From: Burkholderiales bacterium
Lineage (GTDB): Bacteria > Pseudomonadota > Gammaproteobacteria > Burkholderiales > SG8-39
Direction of reading: 5' to 3'
DNA length: 64,000 nt
Assembly (NCBI GenBank): GCA_036394595.1
Contig: DASWEU010000201.1
Coordinates: 395 to 64,394, forward strand
Part shown: piece by piece, positions 18,715-22,763 of the stretch
Layout of the letters: each line of letters opens with the position of its first letter
Position numbering within the stretch: position 1 is the first letter of the stretch
Program-made: the position numbers and the translations under genes
The notes under the pieces: generated by a model
What the model saw: only the letters and a program-made list of their open reading frames with translations
Told to the model about the DNA's origin: nothing
Databases searched by the model: none

Positions 18715-18748
18715 CTCTAGTACGTCAGCCCCGTAACCTTCGTGTCAG

Positions 18749-19282
18749 TTGCTCCTATTCGAGGAGGGGCGAGATTTGACTCTCAGATTGAAGGAGCCGG
18801 CAAACGTACTCTTTAGGATCAAGCGGGGGTTAGCTGGATACGTTAGTTACCTCGCTGCGTGCGAGATGAACCCTATCTTTACGGAATACCTGCTTTACGA
18901 GCCTATCTTAAGAATACTTGCGGGTAGAGAGTACTTAGTTGAATGCGAGTACGAATGTCCGGGAATTGAACAACCGAAGAAAGGCGACAAGAAGAGAATT
19001 GACTTTGTGGCGAGGAAGGGCGATGTGCACTTTGCACTTGAGGTCAAGTGGGCGAAGGCGAAGCGTGTAATTGTTTCGCGTGATCTAAAGAAATTGCAGG
19101 CGTTTCAGAACGAATTTCCTGAGGCGAAATCATTTTTGTGCATTTTCGGAAGGAAACGTCACATTGAGAACCTCCGTCACCTAGACGAAGATTTTTGGGA
19201 ACGAGGGGAAATGGTAACTGCCGATTTCAAGAAAACGCGCTTTAGCTGCCGGGTATTCCAAATGAGGAGTTGGCTGGACTGA
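18749..19282 (+). CDS. Small PD-(D/E)xK nuclease-fold protein (restriction-endonuclease-like), hypothetical
   Basis: Core motif RIDFVARKGDVHFALEVKWAK (D ... E-x-K) preceded by a helix with conserved Glu (TEYLLYEPIL). The track start is a TTG at 18749. A TTG at 18776 has a better RBS (GAGGAGG at 18761-18767). Confidence 0.6.
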   Translation: MLLFEEGRDLTLRLKEPANVLFRIKRGLAGYVSYLAACEMNPIFTEYLLYEPILRILAGREYLVECEYECPGIEQPKKGDKKRIDFVARKGDVHFALEVKWAKAKRVIVSRDLKKLQAFQNEFPEAKSFLCIFGRKRHIENLRHLDEDFWERGEMVTADFKKTRFSCRVFQMRSWLD

Positions 19283-19492
19283 CCTCGAACGGCAATGCTG
19301 GCGAATATCAAGGCTCGGCTTTGGTACGCTACAGACGCGTTGCTCTCTCCCCCAAGTAGCGATTTAAGCCGCGGGATTAGGACATAGGGATAATTCCGGG
19401 TTGTGCTTCGTTATCCGTCTGCTGGACCGACGCTCCATGTAGGACTAGTCTCCACGCGGGGATTTTGCGTGGACGCCGAATAGTCGAGAGCA

Positions 19493-20494
19493 ATGGGGAT
19501 CTCAGTCATGCCAATCAAACCGCTTCGGGCAAGTGGCCTAACGTTCCATCGGTACCAGCGAGGGGTCAATCAGACCGATGATCAGAAAAAGCTACTAGTT
19601 TCATTGCTTGGTCTGGTCGGCGAGCTTGGCGATGTCCAAACGATATTCAAGCGTCGACTTGAAATTGGCCTTTACCCAAACTTTGATCTCGATATGGCCG
19701 AGGAGATCGGCGACACATTGTGGTATTTGACTAGTCTCGCGTCCCGAGTTGGACTGCGTATGGAGGACATAGCAGCAGAGAATATTTCAAAGGCGGCGCA
19801 ACTTCATTCGTTGGGCGACATCTATCAGTTCGACAAGGGATATGCGAAAGATGAACAACTGCCTCGTCAATTCGATGTTGTGTTCGAAGAAAAGCCACTG
19901 CGCAAAAGCATTCAGGTCAAGATTGTTGTCCGGGGCGTATTTGTTGGAGATGCACTGACCGACAACTCAATAAAGGATGACGGGTACCGGTATCACGACG
20001 CCTTTCACCTCGCATACGCGGCATGCCTGGGGTGGTCACCGGTCACCCGTTCTCTACTTAGGCGCAAGCGAAAAAGCGATCGGAGAATTGACGAAGTAGA
20101 GGACGGCGCTCGAGCTACGACCGTAGAAGAGGCTATTTCGATTTTCCTCTTCAATCAATCTCAAAAACGTAATGAGTATCGAGAGCTAAATGCAATCGAC
20201 ATAAGTTTGCTAAAGACAGTGCGGTCACTATGCGGCACCCTCGAGGTGCGACGTTGCACAGCCAAGCAATGGAGAGCGGCAATCTTTAGTGGATATCAAA
20301 TATTTCGTGCACTTCGAGACAACAAAGGTGGAATCGTTTCCTTGGATCTCAATAGAGCGTCAATAAGCTACTCGCCACTTCGACCGAGAAGCGTCAAGGG
20401 GAGGAATCATGCCGGACGTTCAGGCTCCAGACTGCCTAATCGCATGGCAAGAAGGCGCGCGAAAACTTCAAAAAGGTGGCGGCGAAGTCTTTAA
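19493..20494 (+). CDS. MazG-like all-alpha NTP pyrophosphohydrolase domain protein with an uncharacterised C-terminal half
   Basis: N-terminal LLGLVGELGDV ... EEIGDTLWYLTSLA matches the MazG/dimeric-dUTPase E-x2-E / E-x2-D metal-binding helices. The C-terminal approx. 200 aa (…DDGYRYHDAFHLAYAACLGW…) has no motif I can assign. The basic tail overlaps the next gene by 86 nt. Confidence 0.65.
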   Translation: MGISVMPIKPLRASGLTFHRYQRGVNQTDDQKKLLVSLLGLVGELGDVQTIFKRRLEIGLYPNFDLDMAEEIGDTLWYLTSLASRVGLRMEDIAAENISKAAQLHSLGDIYQFDKGYAKDEQLPRQFDVVFEEKPLRKSIQVKIVVRGVFVGDALTDNSIKDDGYRYHDAFHLAYAACLGWSPVTRSLLRRKRKSDRRIDEVEDGARATTVEEAISIFLFNQSQKRNEYRELNAIDISLLKTVRSLCGTLEVRRCTAKQWRAAIFSGYQIFRALRDNKGGIVSLDLNRASISYSPLRPRSVKGRNHAGRSGSRLPNRMARRRAKTSKRWRRSL

Positions 20495-21107
20495 TTTGAT
20501 AACTACAATTGATGTTCCCACCAGCTATCAATTGGGATGGCTGTCGACGTTTTCGCCTCACGCAGTTGTAGCTGGAAGTGATCGATTATTGGATGTCATT
20601 AACACCGTCTTTCCAGTTCGGCTTTCAAAGAAGAGTGCTTCTAGACCAGTTCTCTACGACTCATATGATCGTCTACATAAGCGTGCAATGAAATTGCCAC
20701 GCAATCGGTCGCGTTGGGGCACTTATTTCTCCCGCCTCACAGCGTACGGAGGCAAAACTAATCAACTGGAGACTGTAATCCAGAAGCTCAAAAAGTGGCC
20801 CCGCTATACGGCAGCCTTGGTATTTCACCTTTCTTGTCCGCTCTTGGACAAGCCGAGAACAAGAGGAGGGCCGTGCTGGCATTACGGTGAATTGATTTGG
20901 CGAAAAGGAGACGTACTAGATCTAGTAGTCGTTTACCGCAATCACGATTTCTTCAACAAAGCGCTCGGCAATTTCATCGCATTAGGACAACTTCTTAATT
21001 TCATCGCATCTGCTAGTGGAAAAAAGTCCGGCAAATTAATCTGCCATTCAGTTCACGCATATTCTCAGCAATCAATCAAACACCTAGTGGCGCTTGCGCA
21101 AATATAG
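20409..21107 (+). CDS. Divergent thymidylate-synthase-fold protein (TS / dNMP hydroxymethylase superfamily), 232 aa
   Basis: Collinear with the E. coli ThyA core:
- NQLETVIQKLKKWP vs IDQITTVLNQLKNDP;
- GGPCWHYGELIW vs LAPCHAFFQFYV (catalytic Cys);
- LDLVVVYRNHDFFNKALGNFIALGQLLNFIA vs [31 protein letters not shown];
- HSVHAYS vs GDTHLYS.
Strong RBS GGGGAGGA 4 nt before the ATG. Confidence 0.65.
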   Translation: MPDVQAPDCLIAWQEGARKLQKGGGEVFNLITTIDVPTSYQLGWLSTFSPHAVVAGSDRLLDVINTVFPVRLSKKSASRPVLYDSYDRLHKRAMKLPRNRSRWGTYFSRLTAYGGKTNQLETVIQKLKKWPRYTAALVFHLSCPLLDKPRTRGGPCWHYGELIWRKGDVLDLVVVYRNHDFFNKALGNFIALGQLLNFIASASGKKSGKLICHSVHAYSQQSIKHLVALAQI

Positions 21108-21116
21108 AGAGTTGAA

Positions 21117-22244
21117 TTGAATCCAGAAGCTGAAAAGACAAAAGCATTCGAGCAATTGGTCATTGAAGTTACCGCCTGTCGAAAATGTCCGCGAATGAAT
21201 TCGAGCGAAAGGATCTTTGGACATTCCTGTGGCGGACTAAACGCCTCGGTGATGTTTATTGGAGAAGCTCCAGGGCGACTTGGTGCTGACAACACGTTGA
21301 TACCCTTCCATGGAGATCAGTCCGGCCATAACTTTGAAAGCTTCCTATTGCAGGTCGGAATAAACAGATATGAAAGCTTTGTAACGAACGCAGTACTGTG
21401 CAATCCGAAGGACGAAAAAGGGAACAATGCCACTCCAACACTTGATGAAGTTCGAAACTGCAGTCCGTTTCTCCATAGACAACTCGATCTAGTCAAGCCC
21501 AAAGTTGTTGTTACCTTGGGCGCAATAGCGCTAAGGGCTGCGGCAAATGTTGAACCACACGGCCTAACTATCGCAAAGCACGTGCGAACGCTGAGGACCT
21601 GGTACGGGGCAAAGCTCATTCCTTTGTATCACCCTGGGCAGCGCGCGATGATGCACAGAAGCTTTTCGAATCAGCTTTCTGACTATCAGTCTGTTTCCGA
21701 AGCTATTCGAAATAGAAGCCCAAAAAAGACGCGCTTGGGCAGATATTCACCAAAGGTTGCTGCAATAGTTGAGTTGATACTTGCGCAGAAGCCAAGGATT
21801 AGCTATTTCGGTCTTCACAAACTCTATTACCTAATAGAACTAGAAGCCCGTAAAAGAATCGGTATGCGACTCACAAATAGCTACATTGTTAGACAGAAGG
21901 ATGGCCCATATTGCGTTGATCTTCACCTAGCAAAATTGAAACTAATGATTCCGAAATTGAACGTCGAGGCGCGCAGTAACAAAATTGCCTTGCGCGTTAC
22001 TGAGGCAAGCGATCTTTTTTTGGAATTGCAACCAAAACAGGCCATGCTAAATGAGGCTGAGAAGGATGTAGTTGTTGCAGTGGTCGCTCGTTATGGAACT
22101 TTGACGGACGCGGAGCTAAAGAGGCGCAGTTATTTGACCAGAGAGATGCGGAATATTCTCCGATCAGAGAAGCAAGCTAGAACAAATATGTTTAATGTCC
22201 CTCTGCTCTTACCAACCAGGGAGGAGCTCGCCCGTGACACCTGA
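21117..22244 (+). CDS. Family-4-type (Fe-S) uracil-DNA glycosylase superfamily domain fused to a C-terminal DUF4065/Panacea (SocA/GepA-like) domain
   Basis: UDG: CRKC...C(NP)...C(SPF) four-Cys pattern, motif A FIGEAPG, motif B LYHPGQRAM. C-terminal half: HKLYYLIELEARKRIGMRLTNSYIVRQKDGPYCVDL resembles the KLxKLLYxxQ...G...GPV pattern of DUF4065. Apparent TTG start. Confidence 0.65.
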   Translation: MNPEAEKTKAFEQLVIEVTACRKCPRMNSSERIFGHSCGGLNASVMFIGEAPGRLGADNTLIPFHGDQSGHNFESFLLQVGINRYESFVTNAVLCNPKDEKGNNATPTLDEVRNCSPFLHRQLDLVKPKVVVTLGAIALRAAANVEPHGLTIAKHVRTLRTWYGAKLIPLYHPGQRAMMHRSFSNQLSDYQSVSEAIRNRSPKKTRLGRYSPKVAAIVELILAQKPRISYFGLHKLYYLIELEARKRIGMRLTNSYIVRQKDGPYCVDLHLAKLKLMIPKLNVEARSNKIALRVTEASDLFLELQPKQAMLNEAEKDVVVAVVARYGTLTDAELKRRSYLTREMRNILRSEKQARTNMFNVPLLLPTREELARDT

Positions 22245-22740
22245 ACAGCAGTCTTTGACCAGCAATGACGAAGTAATTACAGCGCTACGCGATCATGCGT
22301 GGGACTACTTTGAATTGCACGCGGAGCAGCGCCTTAAAGCATTCCATTTCTACATTTTGCTGGAAACGGGTCTCGTCGCAGGTTTGCTTCTTGCGACTCG
22401 TGCCGGTTCACCGGACATTAGGATGATCACAGTCATTGGCTTATTAATGGCTTTCTTCTCAATTATTTTCTGGAAAATAGATTTCCGAACAAAAGGCATG
22501 ATCAAGATTTCGGAGGAGGCACTAAAGCTTTATGAGAAGCGAAAATTTGGAAACCAAAATGATGACGATTTAATTCATTCAACTCCCTTCTTGAATGACC
22601 CCCAAGTTAGAGGGCTTGTTGGCCGCTCTCCATTCGGTACGCTGTCTTACTCCAAATGCTTTGGAGCTGTATTCGCCGTCTTTGCGCTCCTCGGTCTCGT
22701 GATGTCAATCGGTGGAGCTGTAAATTTGCTTTGCCATTGA
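22234..22740 (+). CDS. Three-TM membrane protein (candidate effector/toxin), hypothetical
   Basis: Hydrophobic segments FHFYILLETGLVAGLLLAT, MITVIGLLMAFFSIIFW and FGAVFAVFALLGLVMSIGGAV. The GTG at 22234 is preceded by GGGAGGAG and overlaps the upstream stop by 11 nt. The alternative ATG at 22195 lacks an RBS. Confidence 0.55.
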   Translation: MTPEQQSLTSNDEVITALRDHAWDYFELHAEQRLKAFHFYILLETGLVAGLLLATRAGSPDIRMITVIGLLMAFFSIIFWKIDFRTKGMIKISEEALKLYEKRKFGNQNDDDLIHSTPFLNDPQVRGLVGRSPFGTLSYSKCFGAVFAVFALLGLVMSIGGAVNLLCH

Positions 22741-22763
22741 AACGCGTACGCAGTTAAGTCCTG

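Follow-up and report, generated by a model that had tools for sequence, protein, structure and literature searches.

The stretch of 64,000 nucleotides analysed here (the window; Burkholderiales bacterium, contig DASWEU010000201.1) contains an open reading frame (ORF), the product of which is a folded protein of the thymidylate synthase (TS) superfamily equipped for catalysis, referred to in the following as the TS-like protein. Since its folate determinants, the residue at the position of Leu143 of ThyA and the signatures of the hydroxylases all mismatch, the clade to which this protein belongs does not fit into any of the four branches of the superfamily that are defined by function. Together with the next gene downstream, which codes for a uracil-DNA glycosylase (UDG) fused to a SocA/Panacea domain, the TS-like gene constitutes a strictly conserved, mobile multi-gene system that the literature anticipates only in part. 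An initial annotation, made from the sequence alone, had proposed a miniature and highly divergent protein of TS fold with retained catalytic residues, and the fold and the residues are confirmed below by a structure model, by Foldseek and by hhalign (94.8 % probability). The conserved multi-gene system, the Panacea domain on the UDG and a second operon type with a radical S-adenosylmethionine (SAM) gene go beyond that annotation.

Fold and active site of the TS-like protein

Profile searches relate the TS-like protein to TS at scores below the respective cut-offs. The Pfam profile Thymidylat_synt (PF00303) matched residues 113-221 only, with an E-value of 9.6e-4 and 18.8 bits against a gathering score of 24.3, and the profile of the archaeal small TS (TIGR03283) matched residues 100-218 with an E-value of 1.4e-12 and 47.6 bits against a cut-off of 174.55. 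The latter profile was matched by all aligned homologues (38/38) at E-values of 1e-12 to 9e-15, the best of which (8.8e-15) is comparable to the 47.6 bits of the TS-like protein and still far below the equivalog level, and the TS families of PHROGs matched the TS-like protein at 2e-6. Sequence searches of the PDB, conducted with the single protein as well as with the family profile, found no TS, and hhalign gave no significant alignment when ThyA of E. coli was the only reference (probability 0.2 %). Against a profile of eleven TS and hydroxymethylase sequences (reference alignment A3, consisting of E. coli ThyA and ten phage TS homologues), hhalign aligned residues 91-221 with a probability of 94.8 % and an E-value of 5e-8.

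An AlphaFold2 model of the TS-like protein, built from 38 homologues, reached a predicted local distance difference test score (pLDDT) of 91.2 and a predicted template modelling score (pTM) of 0.90. At E ≤ 1e-3, Foldseek related this model to 396 chains of the PDB, the top 50 of which all belong to the TS superfamily (probability 1.0), with template modelling (TM) scores of 0.55-0.67. The identity between the TS-like protein and ThyA amounts to 13-18 %. The top matches are the dCMP hydroxylase of phage HY126 (9iqu, 4.7e-12) and its complex with flavin adenine dinucleotide (9iqc, 2e-11), both at TM-scores of 0.63-0.64. They are followed by ThyA of several species (0.55-0.63) and by MilA (0.66-0.67), the TM-scores of which are the highest among the PDB matches listed; together, these three groups of structures span E-values of 5e-12 to 1e-9. 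Models of viral TS and hydroxymethylases were also matched among the predicted viral structures of BFVD. The structural comparison, which the initial annotation had named as a check, resulted in a match to the TS superfamily (TS, dCMP hydroxylase and MilA), and the catalytic Cys is conserved among the homologues.

The same annotation had regarded the N-terminal third of the protein as unlike ThyA. This is correct with respect to the sequence, in which no similarity is found and the folate region diverges, but the model keeps the TS topology there (strand, helix A, strand, helices B and C), and the Foldseek alignments cover the entire protein. Likewise, the description as 'miniature' applies in a relative sense only: the protein is small, but the solved dCMP hydroxylases comprise 217-234 aa and the archaeal TS profile has 201 positions.

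Two profile alignments equate Y106, Q119, C156, R177, N178, H179, D180, N188, H216 and Y218 of the TS-like protein with Y94, Q111, C146, R166, S167, C168, D169, N177, H207 and Y209 of ThyA, respectively, and thereby reproduce the block equivalences proposed from the sequence at the outset (PC(W)H, YRNHD, GNF and HAYS). Conservation was evaluated in 64 members of the clade, which represent both operon types described below and loci from more than ten phyla. C156, R177, D180 and N188 are invariant across these 64 sequences. A conservation of at least 95 % was found for W13, V63, F68, P69, W103, G104, Y106, F107, R109, N118, Q119, G153, P155, C156, Y176, R177, N178, H179, D180, G187, N188 and S214, and H216 and Y218 are conserved in type A and in most type B members. 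This is the conservation pattern of an enzyme rather than that of a decayed relic or a plain binding module.

At the position of N177 of ThyA, an Asn specifies uracil, whereas an Asp specifies cytosine nucleotides (PMC13326640). Following this rule, Asn188 points to a uracil rather than a cytosine nucleotide as substrate. The dCMP or CMP substrate that had also been considered initially is not supported, because N188 is an invariant Asn, as it is in the enzymes acting on deoxyuridine monophosphate (dUMP).

In ThyA, the C-terminal segment closes over the folate, and Glu58, Trp80, Trp83 and this lid are involved in binding and activating methylenetetrahydrofolate; Trp80/83 and the lid also serve the hydride transfer. 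Trp80 and Trp83 align with A93 and L96 of the TS-like protein, which ends 14 residues past H216-A-Y218 and is devoid of the C-terminal lid. Glu58 is invariant in all eleven A3 reference sequences, and there is no invariant acidic residue in the N-terminal half of the TS-like clade (64 members). As this region shows no significant alignment and was compared by topology only, we infer from the arrangement of helices in the model that the counterpart of Glu58 would be position 65 or 66, which is variable or Thr.

The position of Leu143 is taken by an invariant Gly (G153) in the TS-like clade. Methyl-forming TS are reported to have a Leu and hydroxymethylases an acidic residue at this position (PMC13326640). 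The three most divergent phage homologues in A3 (rows L071-L073) have an Asp there and keep Glu58; we take these three to be hydroxymethylases on account of their genera and of a glucosyltransferase neighbour rather than of a functional annotation. A further signature, consisting of D169N, N177D and an acidic residue at L143 (L143E), is reported for the flavin-dependent 5-hydroxy-dCMP synthases (PMC13326640). It is absent in the TS-like clade, which has D180, N188 and G153 instead. Because Glu58, Trp80/83 and the C-terminal lid are missing and a Gly is found at the Leu143 position, the sequence suggests that the TS-like protein is probably not a folate-reducing synthase forming deoxythymidine monophosphate (dTMP).

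The conserved cassette and its genomic setting

A word-indexed search yielded 309 relatives of the TS-like protein, mostly full-length with 232-240 aa and recorded as 'hypothetical protein' or without a name. When 1.84 billion cluster representatives were searched exhaustively with a profile, 1,069 of them reached E ≤ 1e-3 and 663 reached E ≤ 1e-10; grouped at 50 % identity, the clade amounts to about 1,070 clusters. With each species represented by a single genome, a scan resulted in 62 loci, the hosts of which belong to Beta-, Alpha- and Gammaproteobacteria, Bacteroidota, Cyanobacteria, Nitrospirota, Verrucomicrobiota, Planctomycetota, Firmicutes and Sumerlaeota and include one archaeon of the Bathyarchaeia. 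The family is common in Burkholderiales.

ORFs were called in 67 loci and searched with the island proteins of the window. A full-length UDG-Panacea homologue containing both domains is located downstream of the TS-like gene in every one of them (67/67), and two operon types can be distinguished. In type A, which comprises about 50 of the 67 loci and to which the window belongs, a MazG-MazG_C gene lies immediately upstream of the TS-like gene; in two loci, MazG-MazG_C is found downstream on the opposite strand. In type B, represented by about 12 of the 67 loci at about 30 % identity, MazG is absent and a radical-SAM gene of about 350 aa is placed between the TS-like and the UDG gene. Hosts of type B are Planctomycetota, Verrucomicrobiota, Firmicutes, Desulfobacterota, Bathyarchaeia and others (L053-L064; e.g. 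L055:6959-9877 and L062:6956-9884). The radical-SAM protein carries a CxxxCxxC motif and matches the SPASM-type maturases PqqE, mycofactocin maturase and NirJ2 over its full length, with weaker matches to MoaA and BlsE, all of these matches being below the cut-offs.

The initial annotation had noted a UDG and a MazG in place of dihydrofolate reductase (DHFR) next to the TS-like gene and had separated the latter from a housekeeping ThyA. Both statements agree with the data obtained here, as the neighbours are a MazG-MazG_C protein and a family-4-like UDG, no DHFR gene is nearby and the gene resides in a mobile low-GC cassette.

Additional genes are associated with the cassette in some hosts. 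In Fibrella (L046:8794-9636), a dCTP-deaminase-like (DCD) gene directly follows UDG-Panacea, and in Flaviaesturariibacter (L042:4975-6078), a gene for an HTH-IrrE/ImmA fusion regulator directly precedes MazG, both loci being type A cassettes of Bacteroidota. The neighbours of the cassette differ by genome; an integrase and a resolvase adjoin it in Paucimonas, and some type B loci adjoin a PLD-helicase, a Schlafen/AlbA_2 protein or DUF488. Two irregular cases were also observed. In a Chitinophagaceae metagenome-assembled genome (MAG; L065:6125-8802), the trio of cassette genes is fragmented, which may reflect either a decaying copy or sequencing errors of the MAG, and in a protein of 298 aa (P0252) an N-terminal MazG_C fragment (Pfam E-value 3e-6) is joined to a TS-like domain, which may be a fusion or a frameshift artefact.

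The UDG-Panacea protein matches the Pfam UDG profile at 3.8e-26 and the NCBIfam profile of type-4 UDG at 8.8e-28. At least 95 % conservation among 65 homologues was found for C21, C24, C95 and C115, for GEAPG and H172-P173, and likewise for the segments PF-x-G-D-x-x-G-x-N-F and T-N-x-x-L-C-N-P. We take the four cysteines to be the 4Fe-4S site of family-4 UDGs, by comparison with UDGA of Thermus thermophilus. The UDG domain is most probably an active glycosylase. The SocA_Panacea domain was detected at 1.2e-6 with a score of 29.8 bits, which exceeds the gathering score of 25.7. Panacea-containing toxin-antitoxin (TA) genes are recognised by a location within 100 nt of a conserved partner gene in several species (PMC8832971); here, the gap is 9 nt, and the adjacency is conserved in 67/67 loci across phyla, with the radical-SAM gene intervening in type B. 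In other systems, Panacea neutralises toxins (PMC8832971).

The MazG-MazG_C protein is matched by the Pfam profiles MazG_C (1.1e-71) and MazG (0.0036), the latter representing an all-alpha NTP pyrophosphohydrolase domain at the N-terminus. A profile search of the PDB assigned its MazG domain to the DCTPP1/RS21-C6/YpjD group, and Foldseek agrees for the N-terminal domain only; among the structural matches are a mouse dCTPase with 5-methyl-dCMP and DR2231, which hydrolyses dUTP. The MazG_C domain (aa 110-295, positions 19820-20377), referred to as 'a predicted nucleotide kinase' in the DefensePredictor paper (PMC13092281), was modelled with a pLDDT of >90 over most of residues 170-300. It has the appearance of an orphan catalytic domain, with invariant charged residues such as D157, N158, D163, R166, H168, D169, H172 and K192-R193-K194, and further invariant residues at D200, E203-D204, R207 and E212-E213. 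Tandem duplicated N-terminal MazG domains are present in L002, L025, L027, L028, L039 and L040 (about 385-410 aa), and the same extended architecture is seen in the MazG-MazG_C protein (386 aa) of a Sulfitobacter plasmid.

A tblastn search against plasmids revealed 20 distant cousins of the TS-like protein at identities of 25-31 %; conjugative plasmids carry 11 of these. Their operons, exemplified by loci from Sulfitobacter (L068), Streptomyces (L069) and Allocoleopsis (L070), encode an XRE regulator, an ImmA/IrrE protease, the TS-like cousin, a kinase of 5-hydroxymethyl-deoxyuridine (5-hmdU) in DNA (PF18723, E-value about 1e-114) and MazG-MazG_C, to which an acyl carrier protein or a papain-like peptidase is sometimes added. 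On the Sulfitobacter plasmid, genes for a short UDG and for a dCTP-deaminase-like protein are present in addition, the latter beside the TS-like cousin.

The cassette of the window was acquired horizontally and forms a low-GC insert (Table 1). The island of about 4 kb has a G+C content of 42-54 %, compared with 63-70 % in the rest of the window, and holds five ORFs on the same strand, namely those for a PD-(D/E)xK/Hjc-like protein, MazG-MazG_C, the TS-like protein, UDG-Panacea and an 8xMP-like protein. It is flanked by ordinary genes, coding for a 2-oxoacid:ferredoxin oxidoreductase and a Bug/TctC-type binding protein. No direct repeats were found at its flanks, and no promoter or terminator signals rose above shuffled expectation.

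Table 1. Features of the low-GC island and of the TS-like gene, given as positions in the window.
Feature	Positions	Strand	Basis
TS-like enzyme gene, 232 aa	20409..21107	+	profile matches, model, homologues
Codon of Cys156, predicted nucleophile (ThyA C146), G-x-P-C motif	20874..20876	+	invariant in 64
R177-N178-H179-D180, equivalent to ThyA R166-S167-C168-D169	20937..20948	+	invariant; alignments
Asn188, equivalent to ThyA N177, base-specificity residue	20970..20972	+	invariant; alignments
H216-A-Y218, equivalent to ThyA H207-L-Y209, deoxyribose 3'-OH contacts	21054..21062	+	alignments
MazG-MazG_C gene, 333 aa	19493..20494	+	MazG domain about aa 12-105, MazG_C aa 110-295
Overlap of MazG 3' end and TS-like 5' end, 86 nt	20409..20494	+	
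UDG (family-4-like, aa 12-196) fused to SocA/Panacea (aa 233-339), 375 aa	21117..22244	+	
8xMP-like membrane protein, 181 aa, candidate accessory gene	22195..22740	+	sub-threshold Pfam match
PD-(D/E)xK/Hjc-like small nuclease ORF, 177 aa, left edge of island	18749..19282	+	
Low-GC island holding the cassette	18715..22760	.	GC 42-54 % vs 63-68 % in flanks

The long ORF of the TS-like gene is real and its overlap with MazG genuine, because the N-terminus is conserved and structured and a Shine-Dalgarno sequence is present. The latter, GGGGAGGA, precedes the ATG at 20409, and residues 1-29 are conserved across homologues, with W13 being invariant, and were modelled as a strand and helix A at a pLDDT of 97. 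The public call for the identical sequence (P0001, 203 aa) begins at residue 30; with residues 1-29 being conserved and structured, this start is ruled out and the public call is a shortened one. A chance ORF caused by high GC is excluded as well, by the low-GC island, the Shine-Dalgarno sequence and the hundreds of homologues. The overlapped tail of MazG (residues 306-333) is rich in Arg, was modelled as disordered (pLDDT < 50) and is missing from most homologues (83-86 % query coverage). In many relatives, the MazG and TS-like genes overlap by just 4 nt. An identical MazG protein is recorded from a Burkholderiales MAG (P0270). On the other side, 9 nt separate the stop codon of the TS-like gene from the start of UDG-Panacea.

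The PD-(D/E)xK/Hjc-like ORF matched Hjc at 1.3e-3 and 1.1e-4, both below the cut-off, and gave weak PADLOC matches to PD-(D/E)xK nucleases. With no homologue in the 67 related loci, it is ruled out as a member of the cassette and could be cargo of the island in its own right. The 8xMP-like gene, which overlaps the 3' end of UDG-Panacea by 50 nt, matched the Pfam 8xMP profile at 3.1e-6 and 27.5 bits, under the gathering score of 30. Among the 67 loci, a homologue downstream of the UDG was found in L066 only (L066:2703-3209, a Terriglobia MAG), and a search of the literature on 8xMP returned nothing relevant. The protein may be an optional membrane effector or accessory gene product.

Possible functions of the cassette

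A hydroxymethylase-like modifier or another enzyme of altered chemistry, as had been suggested initially, stays the best class of explanation for the TS-like protein. For the cassette as a whole, a role in biological conflict, i.e. defence or addiction, appears likely. The chemistry and the biological role set out in the following are hypotheses. Based on the sequences, we tentatively favour, with a probability of roughly 0.4, a mobile conflict system that would rewire the pyrimidine pool by diverting dUMP to a C5-altered nucleotide, followed by excision through the UDG.

In detail, the DCTPP1/dUTPase-like MazG domain would convert pyrimidine deoxynucleoside triphosphates (dNTPs) to the deoxynucleoside monophosphate (dNMP) substrate, dUMP, and in some relatives the dCTP-deaminase-like enzyme might assist in this supply. 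The TS-like enzyme would bind the uracil-type dNMP, with Asn188 reading the base, R177, probably together with R150 and R109, binding the phosphate, and H216/Y218 binding the 3'-OH. Cys156 would then attack C6, and the C5 substituent would be altered. Because the folate-handling residues are gone, the outcome at C5 is presumably not a reductive methylation, and 5-hydroxymethyl-dUMP, 5-hydroxy-dUMP or another C5 derivative is the more likely product. In this way, dUMP would be diverted from dTMP synthesis into a non-canonical nucleotide, which MazG_C, predicted by others to be a kinase, may return to the triphosphate pool. Either the aberrant base or uracil would be excised by the UDG from DNA undergoing replication, so that abasic sites stop a fast-replicating invader, and the Panacea domain might keep the system silent until infection.

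This proposal is supported by the DCD-like gene following the UDG in L046 and by the one beside the plasmid cousin in L068, and also by the 5-hmdU DNA kinase, MazG-MazG_C and regulator genes around the plasmid cousins and by the HTH-IrrE gene of L042. The phage pathway for 5-hydroxymethyluracil (hmU), by which 5-hmdU and its hypermodified derivatives take the place of thymidine, makes use of the same types of enzymes, namely dCTP/dCMP deaminase, dNTP pyrophosphatase, TS homologue, kinase and 5-hmdU DNA kinase (PMC8989533). A conflict role agrees with the low-GC island, with flanks that change from genome to genome, with the integrase and resolvase in Paucimonas and with the systems of the DefensePredictor paper discussed below (PMC13092281). 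With respect to the direction of the reaction, the dCTP-deaminase and putative kinase partners favour making over erasing a modified nucleotide, whereas erasing, or a cofactor other than folate, is favoured by the loss of the folate determinants and by the similarity of the MazG domain to DCTPP1. In a more general form that covers both directions, a new, folate-abandoning TS branch and UDG-Panacea might represent a widespread immune module of the make-and-excise or erase-and-excise kind, with which bacteria and some archaea would rewrite the C5 group of uracil nucleotides upon infection and then destroy the replicating DNA of the invader through base excision; we regard this generalisation as doubtful. 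If true, it would provide a prokaryotic counterpart of the uracilation-based antiviral restriction of mammals, uniting nucleotide chemistry, DNA repair enzymes and TA control in one three-gene cassette.

Several observations weigh against the pool-rewiring proposal. Neither the TS-like nor the MazG protein had a tblastn match among 50,697 phage records; for this reason, a recent phage origin was dropped as an explanation, and with no phage homologue found by tblastn there is no direct link to the phage pathway. PADLOC-DB v2 contains no model for the three core proteins; the TS-like, UDG-Panacea and 8xMP-like proteins gave no match, and MazG gave only a spurious match to JetC (E-value 0.0038). 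The neighbourhoods of ten sampled loci consist mostly of housekeeping genes, and a typical location in defence islands was rejected on this ground. At the level of the active site, the Gly at the Leu143 position agrees with neither of the known product classes, and the loss of the folate determinants fits an enzyme that uses flavin, or a reverse reaction that does without folate, equally well. As to the partners, MazG_C has no structural match in the PDB, either by profile search or by Foldseek, and no recognisable kinase fold, and none of the readings considered here accounts for the radical-SAM protein of type B. The plasmid cousins, finally, have lost the equivalents of D180 and H216/Y218. 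Because of this loss and of their identity of only 25-31 %, the plasmid context can be transferred to the present clade only loosely.

As an alternative, the cassette might serve to exclude uracil from DNA, with MazG acting as a dUTPase, a true TS producing dTMP from dUMP, possibly with an unusual C1 donor as in the archaeal small TS, and the UDG removing uracil. Such a trio would be either a housekeeping backup or a defence against phages with uracil-DNA that inhibit Dut, ThyA and Ung of the host. The three enzyme classes, which are those of classical uracil exclusion, the archaeal TIGR03283 as the best sequence model, N188 and D180 as in true TS, and the resemblance of the MazG domain to the dUTP-hydrolysing DR2231 all agree with this possibility. 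However, the TIGR03283 and Pfam scores are far under their cut-offs, Glu58, Trp80/83 and the C-terminal lid are missing, Leu143 is replaced by Gly, and Panacea, MazG_C, the radical-SAM variant and the dCTP-deaminase neighbours would be left without explanation. We consider uracil exclusion unlikely.

The reverse direction was considered as well. Here, MazG would hydrolyse 5-hmdUTP or another 5-modified dNTP, the TS-like enzyme would, through attack of its Cys at C6, remove the C5 group from the monophosphate without folate, for example by converting 5-hmdUMP to dUMP and formaldehyde, and the UDG would excise hmU or derivatives of it from phage DNA, which would amount to a three-level immunity against phages with hypermodified DNA derived from hmU. 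Glycosylases of the UDG fold that remove modified bases of phages are a proven means of defence (PMC11078745). In further agreement with erasure, the folate determinants are lost while the nucleotide-binding and Cys machinery is kept, the MazG domain is nearest to DCTPP1, which has been solved with 5-methyl-dCMP/dCTP, and the family is common in Burkholderiales. On the other hand, the dCTP-deaminase-like partner and the putative kinase would have no role in erasure, and to our knowledge, no TS-fold enzyme runs such a reverse reaction removing the C5 group. Most BASEL phages and common coliphages are not known to carry hmU. It was against E. coli phages, comprising the BASEL collection and common coliphages, that the validated TS-containing system discussed below was tested (PMC13092281). 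An erasing function, too, seems improbable.

With a somewhat lower likelihood still, and hence as a rather improbable explanation, the TS-like protein may be a flavin-dependent C5 hydroxylase of the AfhB / RB69 gp48 type, which would form a 5-hydroxy nucleotide with O2 and reduced flavin. The best structural matches, 9iqu and 9iqc, are such enzymes of similar size (217-234 aa), and the absence of the folate determinants is in line with this chemistry. In contrast, the substitutions D169N and N177D and the acidic residue at L143 are absent (D180, N188 and G153 are found instead), and the edge in Foldseek is small, with TM-scores of 0.63-0.64 compared with 0.55-0.63 for ThyA and 0.66-0.67 for MilA.

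A self-marking modification is very improbable. In this scheme, a modified uracil would mark the DNA of the host or plasmid, and UDG-Panacea would attack DNA that is unmarked or marked differently. Conjugative plasmids do carry TS-like cousins together with a 5-hmdU kinase that acts on DNA, and base-excising restriction enzymes exist (PMC10273834), but marking through the nucleotide pool would have no sequence specificity, and types A and B have no DNA-level transferase. Finally, a non-catalytic sensor or decoy that binds a phage-derived nucleotide or a phage inhibitor of TS or UDG and thereby releases or activates its partners, as first suggested in the form of a pure nucleotide sensor, would be in accordance with the protein-protein regulation that Panacea suggests and with the nucleotide-sensing defence systems known from the literature, but is highly unlikely given that Proteobacteria and Bathyarchaeia alike keep the nucleophilic Cys, R177, D180, N188, Y106 and Q119 without variation, a pattern typical of an enzyme.

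Comparison with known systems

Compared with ThyA (PF00303, EC 2.1.1.45), the TS-like protein has the fold, the order of secondary structure elements, the P-C Cys and the equivalents of R166, D169, N177, Y94, Q111, H207 and Y209 in common. It differs in that S167 and C168 are exchanged for N178 and H179, and in that it is encoded with MazG and UDG in a mobile cassette and not with folA. The archaeal small TS (TIGR03283) provides the best profile match and is of similarly small size, but most members of the family described here come from bacteria, and they occur in another operon context.

By its compact size and TS fold, the TS-like protein resembles AfhB of phage HY126, RB69 gp48 and DLP3 gp80, a group of 217-234 aa in which folate chemistry has been abandoned. 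These enzymes are flavin-dependent, act on dCMP and carry D169N, N177D and L143E (PMC13326640). They are phage-encoded, whereas tblastn found no phage homologue for the TS-like clade. T4 gp42, the dUMP hydroxymethylase of the SPO1 type and MilA share the TS fold and Cys-mediated chemistry at C5 with the TS-like protein, and phage hydroxymethylases act beside dNTP pyrophosphatases, deaminases and kinases, i.e. beside the types of enzymes seen around the TS-like clade (PMC8989533). In contrast to hydroxymethylases, the clade lacks both the acidic residue at L143 and Glu58. With regard to the dUMP hydroxymethylases of hmU and hypermodified-T phages in particular, the clade has the Asn at the base-specificity position and lacks the acidic residue and Glu58, and a 5-hmdU kinase context is seen only for the cousins of 25-31 % identity.

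Enzymes of the TS fold are textbook examples of folate enzymes, and only recently was a branch of phage TS shown to use flavin. Having lost the folate-activating residues while keeping the thiol machinery, the TS-like clade may hold yet another chemistry, or a reverse reaction, on uracil nucleotides. The cassette is compact and amenable to experiments as a two- or three-gene system in which MazG-MazG_C and radical-SAM partners are interchangeable. If the pool-rewiring proposal is right and the cassette is antiviral, it would represent a new mechanism of nucleotide immunity, in which rewiring of the pool is followed by base excision, and would assign roles to MazG_C and to UDG-fused Panacea. 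New nucleotide-modifying enzymes and glycosylases of new specificity could also be of use for DNA chemistry and base editing.

With regard to TA systems, the cassette shares with the Panacea (PanA) modules a Panacea domain above threshold and, with its gap of 9 nt, a TA-like arrangement; the available text of the Panacea paper mentions no UDG or glycosylase (PMC8832971). For antiviral glycosylases of the Brig1 type, the action of UDG-superfamily members against phage DNA is established (PMC11078745), and the known ones are described as single proteins rather than as partners of a TS-fold enzyme. A preprint on diverse antiviral glycosylases mentions no TS, MazG or Panacea.

The closest parallels come from the DefensePredictor paper, in which a system consisting of TS, dNMP kinase, 5-hmdU kinase, Nmad2 and TIR was validated and an unvalidated MazG/MazG-C/NMAD/UDG system is highlighted as well (PMC13092281). 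These systems have the domains TS, MazG, MazG-C and UDG in common with the cassette and are cellular operons which have been proposed or shown to be antiviral. The validated system differs from the present one by its canonical TS of 361 aa and by having no UDG, MazG or Panacea. The predicted system contains NMAD, whereas the proteins of the window match no Nmad family, so that the cassette is at most a candidate for this predicted system. Seen alongside these systems, the TS-like protein is an unannotated variant of a known superfamily, residing in a widespread cassette that has been partly anticipated in the literature.

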